Shown: positions 50,365 through 59,030 of the stretch, piece after piece
How the letters are laid out: every line of letters begins with the position of its first letter
Numbering within the stretch: the first letter of the stretch is position 1
Origin: Vampirovibrionaceae bacterium NZW_1234
Lineage (GTDB): Bacteria; Cyanobacteriota; Vampirovibrionia; Vampirovibrionales; JAGQHJ01
DNA: 64,000 nt
Assembly (NCBI GenBank): GCA_041697335.1
Contig: JBGUGD010000039.1
Span: forward strand, 128,001 to 192,000
Reading direction: 5' to 3'
Translations under genes and position numbers: made by a program
Notes under the pieces: model-generated
What the model saw: only the letters and a program-made list of their open reading frames with translations
Database searches by the model: none
Told to the model about the DNA's origin: nothing

Positions 50365-51258
50365 ATGGAACCTATGAATGTGAACAAAGGCTATGAGATT
50401 AGCCTGAAACGTGTGTTGGATTTACCCTCGCTGCCTGACGTCGTCAACAGTATTATTGAGATTGTCGGCGATGACGCTACACCGGCATCGGAAATTGCCA
50501 AGCTCATCAGCTATGACCCCGGCTTGACCTCCAAATGCCTTCGCATGGTTAATTCTGCGGCCTACGGCTTTCAGCGGCAAATCAGCTCGGTGCAGCATGC
50601 CATTATGATCCTGGGCTTCAATACCGTGCGGGGGGTGGTTCTGAGCGCCAGCATCTACAAAATGTTCTCGGATAAAAAAGGGCAAAAAGGCATCGATCCC
50701 ATCCAGTTCTGGCGCCATTCCTTCGGTACCGCCATTGCCAGCCGGGTGCTGGCCAATAAATTCCGCATCCGTTATGCCGAAGACGCCTTCAGTGCGGGCA
50801 TGCTTCACGACATCGGCAAGATGATCCTGGACTATTACTTTGCCATGGAGTATCAGGACGTGCTGACCACGGCCCGGTCCAACCGAATCCCCTTCAGCGG
50901 ACGCCTTTTCGTGGCCCTGGAACACAAGATTCTTAAAACCGATCACACGCATCTGGGCTACCAGATTGCCCAGCGCTGGAAACTGCCGGTGACCTTCAAC
51001 GAAGTCATTCGCTGGCATCATCATCCTGAGCGGGCAACCGATGCGCCGGAGCTGGTGTATGTGGTGGCCCTGGCCAATGCCTTTAGCCATATTCTTCAGC
51101 ACAACCACGGGGTTTTCTCTGATGCCTACCTGACCCCGGCTCTGAGAGAGTATTTTCAATACGACCCTGAAGACCCGGAGCCCTTTATTGCACTGTTTAA
51201 AGAAGTGGCCGCCGAAATGGAATCCCTGGACGATCTGTTGATCTCCCTCAAGCACTAA
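50365..51258 (+). CDS. HDOD-domain protein
   Basis: LPSLP, DPGLTSKCLRMVNSA, FWRHS, GMLHDIGK and WKLP..IRWHH motifs. Confidence 0.93.
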   Translation: MEPMNVNKGYEISLKRVLDLPSLPDVVNSIIEIVGDDATPASEIAKLISYDPGLTSKCLRMVNSAAYGFQRQISSVQHAIMILGFNTVRGVVLSASIYKMFSDKKGQKGIDPIQFWRHSFGTAIASRVLANKFRIRYAEDAFSAGMLHDIGKMILDYYFAMEYQDVLTTARSNRIPFSGRLFVALEHKILKTDHTHLGYQIAQRWKLPVTFNEVIRWHHHPERATDAPELVYVVALANAFSHILQHNHGVFSDAYLTPALREYFQYDPEDPEPFIALFKEVAAEMESLDDLLISLKH

Positions 51259-51479
51259 CCCCCCTTTTCCCTCGATTTTCCAAACCAGACGTCACATGCA
51301 CATGCCCCTCCTGTCCGGCTTGACTTGATGGGAGCGCCAAAGGACATCCACTATGAACAACTATGAACGCGAGGTCCGAGGCTTAAATGCTTTCAGGATA
51401 AGGGATTAATATTTTCTTTCTTTTTGTCCGGGCAATTCTAAAGATTTTTCCGTTTTTTTAATAATACAGGCGAGCGTTA

Positions 51480-51916
51480 AACAAAACGCCCTTGGGAGAG
51501 AGAAAATCGCATAGTAAAAGGAGAAATCAATCCCTTAAACGGTATTGTGCACTGTTTGTTGGTAATAAGGAGGATCAGAGAGCAACAATTCTTTTGATGT
51601 GTTTTAGGAACGAGTCAACGTTAAAGGATTCAAAGGAGGTTACTAGCCGTTTAAATCAAGCTTTTTGTACAAACAAGATGTTTTATTCAAATGGTTAAGT
51701 AGAAAAACAAGGAGGTCTTCATCGGGAGAAAACCAATACCGTGTTTATGATGAACTTTTAGGACGTACACTTTAGGATAAGTAAGGAGGCAAAGCCTAGA
51801 TCAGATAGCGTTATTAGTTTCGTGAATTGATCTTGAATTTTAGACGATTGCCACGATGGCAAACGCAATATGCGTCAATGACACCCGACTTCAACTGGAG
51901 TCGGGTGTTCGTCATT
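51480..51916 (+). ncRNA. Candidate GGA/AAGGAGG-repeat sRNA (CsrB/RsmZ-like); boundaries approximate
   Basis: No convincing ORF. 12 GGA vs 1 TCC in 51480-51800, four AAGGAGG without a following start codon, and a terminal hairpin. Confidence 0.45.
51877..51916. terminator. Hairpin between the GGA-rich region and the convergent fliI
   Basis: ACACCCGACTTC-AACT-GGAGTCGGGTGT stem. Confidence 0.7.
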
Positions 51917-51935
51917 AAAGGAATAACCCTGCTTT

Positions 51936-53261
51936 TTAACCAGGCACCTGCTGCGCCAGTTGCGCCAAGCCCTTGACCGTCTCATCAAAGCCCACCGCTT
52001 CATCAACCTGCTGCTTCAAAAAGGCGTCAATTTTGTCTTTAAGCTGAATGGACAGATCGATCTTCGGGTTGGTGCCCCGGACATAGGCACCAATATTGAT
52101 AATGTCCTCGGATTTCCGGTAGGTGGCCATCAGATCTCGGATTTTTCCGGCCGCAGCACGGTGCTCAGGAGCCGTAATGCCAATCATTAATCGGCTGATA
52201 GATCCGAGGACATCCACCGCCGGGAAATGGTTTTGATGGGCCAAATCCCGGGACAGAATGACGTGGCCATCCAAAATCCCGCGAACCGTATCGGAAATGG
52301 GTTCGTTGAAGTCGTCCCCTTCAACCAAGACCGTATATAAGCCCGTAATTGAGCCTTCATCGCTGGTCCCGGCCCGCTCAAGAAGTTTCGGCATAAAGGC
52401 AAAAACACTGGGAGTGTAGCCTCGGCTGGTCGGCGGTTCGCCCACGGACAAACCCACTTCCCGTAAGGCCATCGCCACCCGAGTGAGCGAATCGAGCATC
52501 AGAATGACATTTTTACCTTGGGCCCGGTAGTATTCGGCAATCGTTGTGGCCGTCAAGGCGGCCTTAATTTTCATCAGGGCGGGTTGTTCAGACGTAGAGA
52601 CAACCACCACGGCACGCTTCATCCCTTCGGTTCCCAGGGCCTCTTCAATAAACTCCTTGACCTCCCGGCCCCGCTCACCAACCAGGGCAATGACGGTCAG
52701 ATCCGCCTCGGTATTGCGGGTAATCATCCCAAGCAACGTCGATTTTCCGACCCCGGAGCCTGCAAATATCCCAACCCGCTGGCCCTTTCCGACTGTTGTA
52801 AACCCGTCCAGACTCCGGACCCCCAAGGGCAAGGGCTCGGATATTGAGCGACGGTGCAGAGGCGATGGCGCTTCGGTGGCCACCGGCAAGGCATCATCAC
52901 AGCACAGCTCTCCTCGGTTGTCGATGGGACGCCCCAGGCCATCCAGAACACGCCCCAAGAGGTTTTGACCCACCGGCACTTCCAGGGCCCGATTGGTGTT
53001 CACCACCCGATTACCGGGAGCCAGGGCAATCATCTCGCCCAAGGGCATCATCATCAGCCGGCCGGCTTTGAATCCCACCACCTCGGCTGCCAAGGGAGGC
53101 ACGCCCGGCTGGTCGGAATGAATGTAGCACAGATCGCCCATCTTGGCCCGAGGGCCTTTGGTTTCGATGACCAAGCCCACAATCTGCTCGACATAACCCA
53201 CTTCCGGGTAGGGGGATTGCTGCTTAATCGCCTGCTCAAATGTCGATAAATCCAGCGTCAC
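51936..53261 (-). CDS. fliI: Flagellar export ATPase
   Basis: GIFAGSGVGKS, GERGREV, DSLTR, GEPP..RGY and ILDGH motifs. Confidence 0.96.
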   Translation of the reverse strand: MTLDLSTFEQAIKQQSPYPEVGYVEQIVGLVIETKGPRAKMGDLCYIHSDQPGVPPLAAEVVGFKAGRLMMMPLGEMIALAPGNRVVNTNRALEVPVGQNLLGRVLDGLGRPIDNRGELCCDDALPVATEAPSPLHRRSISEPLPLGVRSLDGFTTVGKGQRVGIFAGSGVGKSTLLGMITRNTEADLTVIALVGERGREVKEFIEEALGTEGMKRAVVVVSTSEQPALMKIKAALTATTIAEYYRAQGKNVILMLDSLTRVAMALREVGLSVGEPPTSRGYTPSVFAFMPKLLERAGTSDEGSITGLYTVLVEGDDFNEPISDTVRGILDGHVILSRDLAHQNHFPAVDVLGSISRLMIGITAPEHRAAAGKIRDLMATYRKSEDIINIGAYVRGTNPKIDLSIQLKDKIDAFLKQQVDEAVGFDETVKGLAQLAQQVPG

Positions 53262-58454: not shown

Positions 58455-59030
58455 TTAGGATCTCGACCCGTGTGAGCCTCCATGACCTGCGGAGGTAGGT
58501 TGGGTTTGATTATTTGATGGCCTGTTTTGAAGCATTCGTCGATATTGGGCTTCTAAAGGCCCAATAGGAAGAATTGGATGAGAGAATGGTTGACGAACCA
58601 TTGTTTCATCGGTTAAGTCAGCACTTAAAAAACCTGATTCGGCTAAAAACGGGTTCTGGCCGTTTGGCCCTAAACGTGCGTCTGGACGAATAATTGCAAA
58701 TGGCCGCATGTAATCTACATGGCGCTCCTGTTGCTCCTGAGGTGGATGGTATGGCTGCCCGGTCAACTTACACCAGGCCGCTTTGGGCAATTCAATAAAA
58801 ACATCGCGAAGCACCGTCTTAACGGATTTAAAAAATCCAGAAATGCCGTTGGACACCCAATCCACAAACTTTTGGCCCAAATTGCGATTATCCGGTGCGG
58901 GCGGTCTTGGGTTTAAAGCTTCAAAACTGTCTTCCGGTGTGTCAAAGAGATACGGGTGCAACATCGTGTTGCCACGTGACTCCGAATGTGAGCCGTTAAC
59001 ACCATGTCCTGCTGAAACGGGTTGAACCAT
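58455..59030 (-). CDS. Hypothetical protein with a repeated terminal SAGHG motif
   Basis: GAGGGG RBS; 191 aa. Confidence 0.7.
   Translation of the reverse strand: MVQPVSAGHGVNGSHSESRGNTMLHPYLFDTPEDSFEALNPRPPAPDNRNLGQKFVDWVSNGISGFFKSVKTVLRDVFIELPKAAWCKLTGQPYHPPQEQQERHVDYMRPFAIIRPDARLGPNGQNPFLAESGFLSADLTDETMVRQPFSHPILPIGPLEAQYRRMLQNRPSNNQTQPTSAGHGGSHGSRS

Follow-up and report, generated by a model that had tools for sequence, protein, structure and literature searches.

A conserved orphan non-coding element beside fliI in a Vampirovibrionaceae bacterium, plausibly a CsrA decoy of unusual architecture

What is the role of a gene-free stretch at the end of a flagellar operon that repeats a perfect Shine-Dalgarno (SD) word with no ordinary start codon behind it? 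The stretch lies in a 64,000-nt window of the genome of Vampirovibrionaceae bacterium NZW_1234. The window is the whole stretch of DNA that was analysed, and positions given without a contig name refer to it. A sequence-only reading had offered two answers, a Csr-type sponge RNA or a decoy binding the anti-SD of 16S rRNA. Judged from its sequence, the locus is a real, selected, orphan non-coding element, and a CsrA decoy with an unusual architecture is plausible. The gene-free, conserved and SD-repeating stretch is probably a non-coding RNA, and the element very probably encodes a functional RNA of some kind. Our favoured reading, to which we assign a probability of about 0.4, is a genus-restricted plus-strand RNA of ~580 nt that would titrate a FliW-type CsrA by mimicking SD-overlapping sites.

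The 677-nt intergenic gap at 51259-51935 separates two convergent genes. The upstream neighbour on the plus strand is an HDOD-domain gene (50365-51258), which closes a series made up of a histidine kinase gene, a receiver/GGDEF-like gene and the HDOD gene itself. The downstream neighbour on the minus strand is a fliI-type flagellar export ATPase gene (51936-53261), the last gene of the flagellar operon. No terminator was found between the HDOD gene and the element. Gap and element have a GC content of 35-40%, compared with about 51%, and the GC skew of the gap is positive, reaching 0.29 against a contig-wide -0.06. The element is single copy in the genome, and a hot-spring metagenome run (X3), possibly of the sample of origin, has contigs identical to the window over the element. 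Upstream of the flagellar operon, the minus strand carries a 191-codon open reading frame (58455-59030) without a Pfam match.

The motif array is as first described. AAGGAGG was found at 51567, 51633, 51709 and 51783, AAGGAGA at 51518, and TAGGA or AAGGA at 51605, 51624, 51759 and 51773, all at the positions reported earlier. A recount of 12 GGA against 1 TCC in 51480-51800 agrees, and the three 3' hairpins (51848-51862, 51863-51875 and 51878 to ~51916) are present. The absence of normally spaced starts behind the SD-like motifs also holds, with none of the nine listed motifs followed by ATG, GTG or TTG at a distance of 3-14 nt. The starts that do occur there are the rare ATC, ATT and ATA, with frames of 2-36 codons. 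What has to be corrected is the start of the region, placed at 51480, since conservation sets in some 150 nt further upstream, near 51332. This added part, outside the range first considered, contains AAGGA at 51340, followed after 8 nt by the ATG of an 18-codon frame on the plus strand (51353-51409).

When the gap was shuffled 20,000 times with dinucleotide counts kept, neither four AAGGAGG (shuffle mean 0.08) nor 13 AGGA (mean 4.1) were ever reached. Plain GGA is only mildly enriched, with the count of 18 reached by 639 of 20,000 shuffles, so that the signal lies in the SD-like word more than in GGA as such. Our own crude gene calls yielded 1,364 intergenic strands with a length of 250 nt or more, and the element ranks first among them for AGGA (10 per 300 nt, next 7), AAGGAG (5, next 3) and WAGGA (9, next 5). 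Related words occur elsewhere in the genome. An intergenic module on contig C2 (207575-207645, plus strand), outside the window, carries TAGGA and AAGGAGG ahead of a 15-bp hairpin whose loop contains GGA. It has an 11-mer in common with the element, which occurs only these two times in the genome, and the similarity of the flanks is within the null. On contig C30 (75052-75560, plus strand), six copies of AAAGGAGG lie ~100 nt apart as degenerate tandem units in an A/G-rich low-complexity stretch. Similar short peptides can be read from it in different frames, so that it might be either a repeat gene broken by frameshifts or an array at the RNA level. Kinship of the element with the C30 array or the C2 module (at 207586) was rejected, with flank scores of 10-18 falling within the null.

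Conservation speaks for a function. In a related organism represented by one contig of a single metagenome run (X10) at a depth of about 4, 28 of 513 sites differ over 51332-51844 (~94.5% conserved), plus two 1-nt insertions. On the same contig, the 3' end of the HDOD gene shows 28 differences in 215 nt (Fisher p 0.001 against the element), and about 80 nt at 51251-51332 are swapped for 66 other letters. The fliI gene of this relative has a synonymous divergence of 0.50 over 74 codons, compared with 0.058 in the element, and third codon positions hold 26 of the 28 fliI differences listed. The contrast between 28 of 513 sites in the element and ~50% of fliI synonymous sites indicates that the sequence itself is under selection. 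The longest plus-strand frame in the gap (68 codons, 51492-51698, no SD) is shifted by the insertion at 51588, and the element is not protein-coding in this frame. The element thus behaves like a functional non-coding element under purifying selection at the nucleotide level. We delimit the candidate RNA of ~580 nt to 51332-51916 on the plus strand, with the 5' end taken from the onset of conservation and the 3' end from the last hairpin. Even with a partner other than CsrA, an orphan of ~500 nt that is about eight-fold better conserved than synonymous sites would be a real candidate for an unknown RNA.

The element appears to be restricted to its genus, as neither a homologue nor an analogue was found outside the close relative. 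BLAST recovered only chance pieces of 17-43 nt in 48 other genomes of the order and 400 genomes of the class. A single-sequence covariance model of 51539-51742, weak by construction, matched none of the 48 genomes. Phages and plasmids gave no match, a viral pattern search gave none either, and the six matches of a GTDB pattern search were unrelated. A metagenome scan with the HDOD protein led to one distant locus. No AGGAGG cluster was found downstream of fliI in 29 relatives' loci (three of which end within 112 nt), and HDOD does not stand beside fliI in any of the 18 of 30 relatives' loci listed. Pattern searches for analogues, with 30 of 38, 5 of 5, 30 of 102 and 50 of 80 matches inspected, returned coding sequence, ordinary SD leaders or a dispersed repeat and no analogue. 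In the set with 50 of 80 matches inspected, ORF-free matches have at most 6 AGGA per 300 nt. A GGA-rich look-alike in one genome (L143) proved to be the antisense of a Ser/Pro-rich gene. The dispersed repeat is an observation of its own. It is intergenic, ~200 nt long and MITE-like with a purine/pyrimidine hairpin, and it occurs in five genomes of one genus (L154, L155, L157-L159; genus g6, family f2), with up to ~10 pattern matches per genome.

None of the known RNA classes tested here accounts for the element. Rfam gave no match at the gathering score and no match to a Csr or Rsm model at E up to 10. A tmRNA was rejected by ARAGORN, RF00023, RF01851 and a profile built from the tmRNAs of five relatives, all of which miss the element. 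The 6S, RNase P and SRP RNAs were each found elsewhere in the genome above the cut-off. The c-di-GMP-I riboswitch (RF01051) had no match at the element, with 150 of 368 genome-wide candidates scored and 51720-51850 scanned directly. A fourU-type thermoswitch was likewise discarded, as AGGA opening from 25 to 72 C rises no faster than the background. Separately, the tmRNA gene was not found in the assembly though smpB is present, which probably reflects an assembly gap. In all five relatives examined (L125-L129), the tmRNA is of the one-piece type, measures 418-459 nt and has a long basic tag.

The genome provides the setting that a CsrA decoy would require. A search for csrA and fliW, suggested by the earlier reading, recovered both genes, with csrA directly after fliW. 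The CsrA protein, encoded on contig C5 (229831-230073), has 80 residues (PF02599 at 86.5 bits), with Arg44, Asn55 and a C-terminal extension, and its Arg44 aligns with that of solved CsrA structures. From its sequence, it is an intact FliW-type CsrA with the RNA-binding residues kept, and the consulted part of PMC13407953 describes a FliW-binding CsrA type with these features. Both csrA and fliW are found in 47 of 49 genomes of the order. Three tandem flagellin genes (contig C26, 158262-162008, minus strand) each have a GGA-rich leader, one of them with GGA in a hairpin loop. AAGGAG is present in the SD of all three, compared with 233 of 2,618 gene starts. When the 1,364 strands are ranked by AGGA, AAGGAG and WAGGA, two flagellin leaders come third, on two of the three lists. 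On the A(N)GGA statistic, one leader takes or shares the top rank at four of the eight window sizes, an internal sign that CsrA reads this motif in this genome. By sequence, the flagellin leaders are likely CsrA targets and possibly titrators of the flaA type. Hfq (PF17209) gave no match in all 11 genomes of the order searched, which weakens models of a base-pairing sRNA.

We compared the element with the criteria for the CsrB family of PMC1488887, using E. coli csrB as control. Agreement was found in the intergenic location and in a cognate CsrA with intact RNA-binding residues. The element ranks first of 3,926 strands on the AGGA/ANGGA statistic at 240-300 nt (9 per 240 nt, with a background maximum of 8 and 16 in CsrB) and just third to fifth in windows of 60-180 nt. 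The statistic barely sets it apart, and it is a clear outlier for AGGA and AAGGAG only. GGA density is 2.7-4.0 per 100 nt, compared with 6.0 in CsrB. The earlier proposal to fold the region and see whether GGA is single-stranded gave a divided answer. Under local folding with an 80-nt span, GGA is on average 0.21 unpaired versus 0.69 in CsrB, with 2 of 16 above 0.5 compared with 16 of 22, and this openness is no better than in motif-preserving shuffles (140 of 200 reach it). Under global folding, about 7 of 12 AGGA are open, and AGGA is 0.54 unpaired versus 0.42 in motif-fixed shuffles, a value reached by 1 of 70. No UvrY/GacA box was found within three mismatches of a consensus in 51000-51600 (the box of csrB is recovered by a similar pattern). 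AAGGAGG can be read both as a perfect SD and as an ANGGAX hexaloop plus closing G. Two pairs can close around the hexaloop in 2 of 4 copies, which is not significant. We do not file the element as a member of the CsrB family. By analogy, it may nevertheless work like one, because N-less and single-stranded sites bind usefully and buried ones do not, according to the portion of PMC4005645 consulted. The same portion reports that RsmE binds N-less and single-stranded A(N)GGAX sites and that AAGGA loops bind well.

The proposal of a Csr-type sponge thus survives in part. The conserved non-coding element, the csrA/fliW pair and the GGA-rich flagellin leaders support it; the display of GGA in hairpin loops under local folding, motif density and separation from the background lend it little or nothing, and no U-tailed terminator was called. 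The decoy reading is based on the motif cluster, the nucleotide-level conservation, csrA and fliW, and the GGA-rich flagellin leaders. The motif given for Campylobacter jejuni CsrA, (C/A)A(A/T)GGA and AAGGA in the consulted part of PMC4894983, also counts for it. Transcription might start at a promoter of the element's own or read through from the kinase-receiver-HDOD operon, and would end at the 3' hairpins. Long-range helices would hold about 7 of the 12 AGGA open in loops and linkers. CsrA dimers could then bind pairs of open AGGA, with the AAGGAGG copies taking the part of CsrA sites that overlap an SD. This would release flagellin and other CsrA-repressed mRNAs, a second and RNA-based input beside FliW. 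Two further points speak against a decoy. Conservation over the whole length seems to exceed what a loose motif array would need, and no homologue or analogue was found in relatives that likewise have CsrA and FliW.

Such whole-length conservation is what a large structured RNA with another protein partner would show, its purine motifs forming mainly the 3' sides of helices in which U-rich tracts are the partners. We consider this rather unlikely, and the predicted fold is where it can be weighed. The fold model, which has marginal support, consists of a closing stem around two domains, followed by the three hairpins. The 5' arm of the long-range closing stem (51352-51395, overlapping the 18-codon frame) would pair with 51785-51826, so that the stem runs end to end. 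The arm duplex reaches -34.1 kcal/mol on the plus strand and -21.7 on the minus strand. The best-window closing duplex (-31.3) beats all of 25 shuffles narrowly (-23 to -31.2), and about 29 expected pairs are predicted to be kept from 37 to 55 C. Domain A (51399-51537) is closed by a perfect 9-bp helix (51399-51407/51529-51537), with AAGGAGA at 51518 mostly paired. Domain B (51539-51742) is closed by another (51539-51547/51734-51742) and holds four hairpins, including a long central one at 51640-51702 (-16.2 kcal/mol on plus, -6.6 on minus).

Within this model, the first AAGGAGG (51567-51573) is predicted in the loop of a hairpin at 51553-51584, with its GGA 0.64 unpaired in the global fold and 0.23 in the local fold. 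The second closes a TAGGA - AAGGA - AAGGAGG cluster (51605-51639) and is predicted to pair with a U-rich tract. The third (51709-51715) has a context in which C-G and A-U pairs can close an ANGGAX hexaloop. The fourth ends a TAGGA - TAGGA - AAGGAGG cluster (51759-51789) in which both TAGGA are predicted single-stranded or in a loop and the AAGGAGG lies in the closing stem. Several AAGGAG are predicted to pair with U-tracts, as the structured RNA would have it, and G-U wobble pairing to these tracts would also yield the asymmetry of GGA over TCC. The plus strand has 68 pairs at P of at least 0.9, compared with a null mean of 37 (reached by 4 of 70 shuffles). The fold statistics are marginal, however. 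The z-score of -2.76 on the plus strand falls to about -2.0 (-1.99) without the 3' hairpins, which alone have -6.2, and two perfect 9-bp helices are at chance level (reached in 367 of 2,000 shuffles). Pairing would also leave the four identical 7-mers, which no shuffle of 20,000 reached, unexplained.

The four 7-mers are the starting point of the anti-SD decoy of the earlier reading. This idea stays in play because the outlier is the SD-like 7-mer over the generic A(N)GGA. Several perfect SDs without start codons would bind or store 30S subunits through the 3' end of 16S rRNA. The 7-mer is complementary to the 16S tail of this genome, one copy matches at 9 of 9 positions, and AAGGAGG is found at just 41 of 2,618 gene starts. 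The spacing of 66-76 nt might give room for one subunit per site. The reading is unlikely nonetheless. The 16S match extends on the 5' side in 1 of 4 copies and on the 3' side in 2 of 4, two of the four AAGGAGG are predicted to be buried by pairing in the global fold, and the same word serves equally as a CsrA hexaloop with its closing G. Where a start codon is lacking, 30S binding through SD pairing is unstable. Our literature search found no report of an SD-array RNA without start codons acting as a 30S decoy. Equally doubtful is a broader version, in which an independently evolved structured RNA serves as a multivalent 30S sink or CsrA and the ribosome compete for the same SD sites. If true, flagellar control would be tied to ribosome availability.

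A reading with no RNA function is slightly less probable again. The conservation would then stem from a recent exchange of DNA or from a site that acts as DNA, and the motif cluster would be decayed or due to chance. The conservation does come from that one shallow contig, and the element is AT-rich with no homologue found elsewhere. On the other side, what is conserved is the very unit that bears the motifs and the fold, with a replaced spacer and diverged genes around it, and the element has the single copy noted above. Searches for a replication origin, dif or parS with consensus patterns revealed neither an inflection of the GC skew nor a cluster of DnaA boxes, and no dif, parS or polar motif bias. 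Elsewhere in the genome, a site on the minus strand of contig C14 (~19100 of the reverse complement) agrees well with a dif consensus. C14 is one of few large contigs whose net GC skew is close to zero, and it likely contains the terminus.

The decoy reading places the RNA on the plus strand, which the predicted fold makes likely rather than settled, given its marginal support. A minus-strand RNA would be a 3' extension of the flagellar operon whose CCUCCUU anti-SD motifs repress mRNAs by base pairing. Anti-SD base-pairing RNAs are known from cuckoo and RNAIII-like families. The minus strand sits directly behind fliI without a classical terminator and folds somewhat above shuffles (z -1.93, or -0.9 without the 3' hairpins; 60 confident pairs reached by 2 of 40), and the two strands cannot be told apart by their G-U pairs (10 of 98 versus 9 of 113). 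Its local hairpins are much weaker, however, flagellin starts rank only 299th to 2,274th of 3,086 as targets, Hfq is missing, and transcription would have to pass through the 3' hairpins (51848-51916). The last of these, with ~15 bp and no adjacent U-tract, is strong on both strands (-22.5 kcal/mol on plus, -17.9 on minus) and may end both converging transcripts. We regard the minus-strand RNA as quite improbable. On the plus strand, no U-tailed (rho-independent) terminator was called despite the strong hairpin at 51878-51916, and among the sigma-70, sigma-28 and sigma-54 matches for the element, none is a convincing promoter. Least probable is a peptide-coding or leader RNA. In this reading, the SD-led 18-codon frame, located right where the conserved unit begins, would be translated under the control of the closing stem, similar to fold-back type I toxin mRNAs. 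This frame does pair with the 3' arm, but its peptide is short and hydrophilic and the motif array downstream would go unexplained.

How would a CsrA decoy at this locus compare with known systems? The element resembles CsrB/CsrC and RsmX/Y/Z of Gammaproteobacteria in being intergenic, in carrying multiple A(N)GGA on one strand over a few hundred nt and in having CsrA in the genome. It differs in about half the GGA density and in AAGGAGG and TAGGA instead of CAGGA (1 CAGGA versus 10). Its GGA lie outside short hairpin loops under local folding, and the predicted fold is long-range and multi-domain. A U-tailed terminator, UvrY box and Rfam match are all missing, and the host has FliW. According to the consulted parts of several sources, Csr sRNAs are typical of Gammaproteobacteria and anti-correlated with FliW, and for FliW systems the flaA leader is given as the known RNA titrator (PMC7652899, PMC4682653, PMC4894983, PMC13407953, PMC13443453, PMC1488887, PMC4005645, PMC3627812). 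The sRNA-activating BarA-UvrY system is described as strongly anti-correlated with fliW in the section of PMC4682653 used here. Whether FliW and sRNAs act jointly on CsrA in any species was still to be determined according to an excerpt of a 2020 review (PMC7652899). Our literature search, with most subscription journals outside its scope, found no CsrB-type sRNA in a FliW species, nothing on CsrA in Vampirovibrio and nothing relevant on noncoding RNA motifs of Melainabacteria.

Closer parallels come from FliW species themselves. Computational CSRNA_FIND predictions of Csr sRNAs in Helicobacter pylori and Bacillus subtilis (PMC1488887, in part) likewise concern FliW-type species without a UvrY site. 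The candidates were reported there to satisfy terminator and loop criteria, where the element instead has evidence of purifying selection. Such sRNAs were later called absent in the consulted portions of PMC4894983 and PMC13407953, the latter a 2026 paper that still applies this to CsrB-type sRNAs of FliW species. The C. jejuni flaA leader shares with the proposed role of the element an RNA-based titration of CsrA beside FliW, an AAGGA-type motif and an SD-overlapping site (PMC4894983, same portion). That portion describes flaA as an mRNA leader with two hexaloop sites before a gene. The element carries 12 AGGA with no gene behind them, and it is directed away from the flagellar operon. The merRNA of Bdellovibrio bacteriovorus is similar in being lineage-restricted, stand-alone, of comparable size (445 nt) and proposed as a sink (PMC3627812, in part). 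It is described there as containing a c-di-GMP riboswitch, with expression shown, whereas our candidate has no c-di-GMP-I match and is known from sequence only. If the favoured reading is true, a CsrA decoy RNA of a different architecture in an inferred non-photosynthetic relative of cyanobacteria would point to an independent origin of such decoys, and it would place an RNA decoy in a lineage thought to control CsrA by a protein, FliW.
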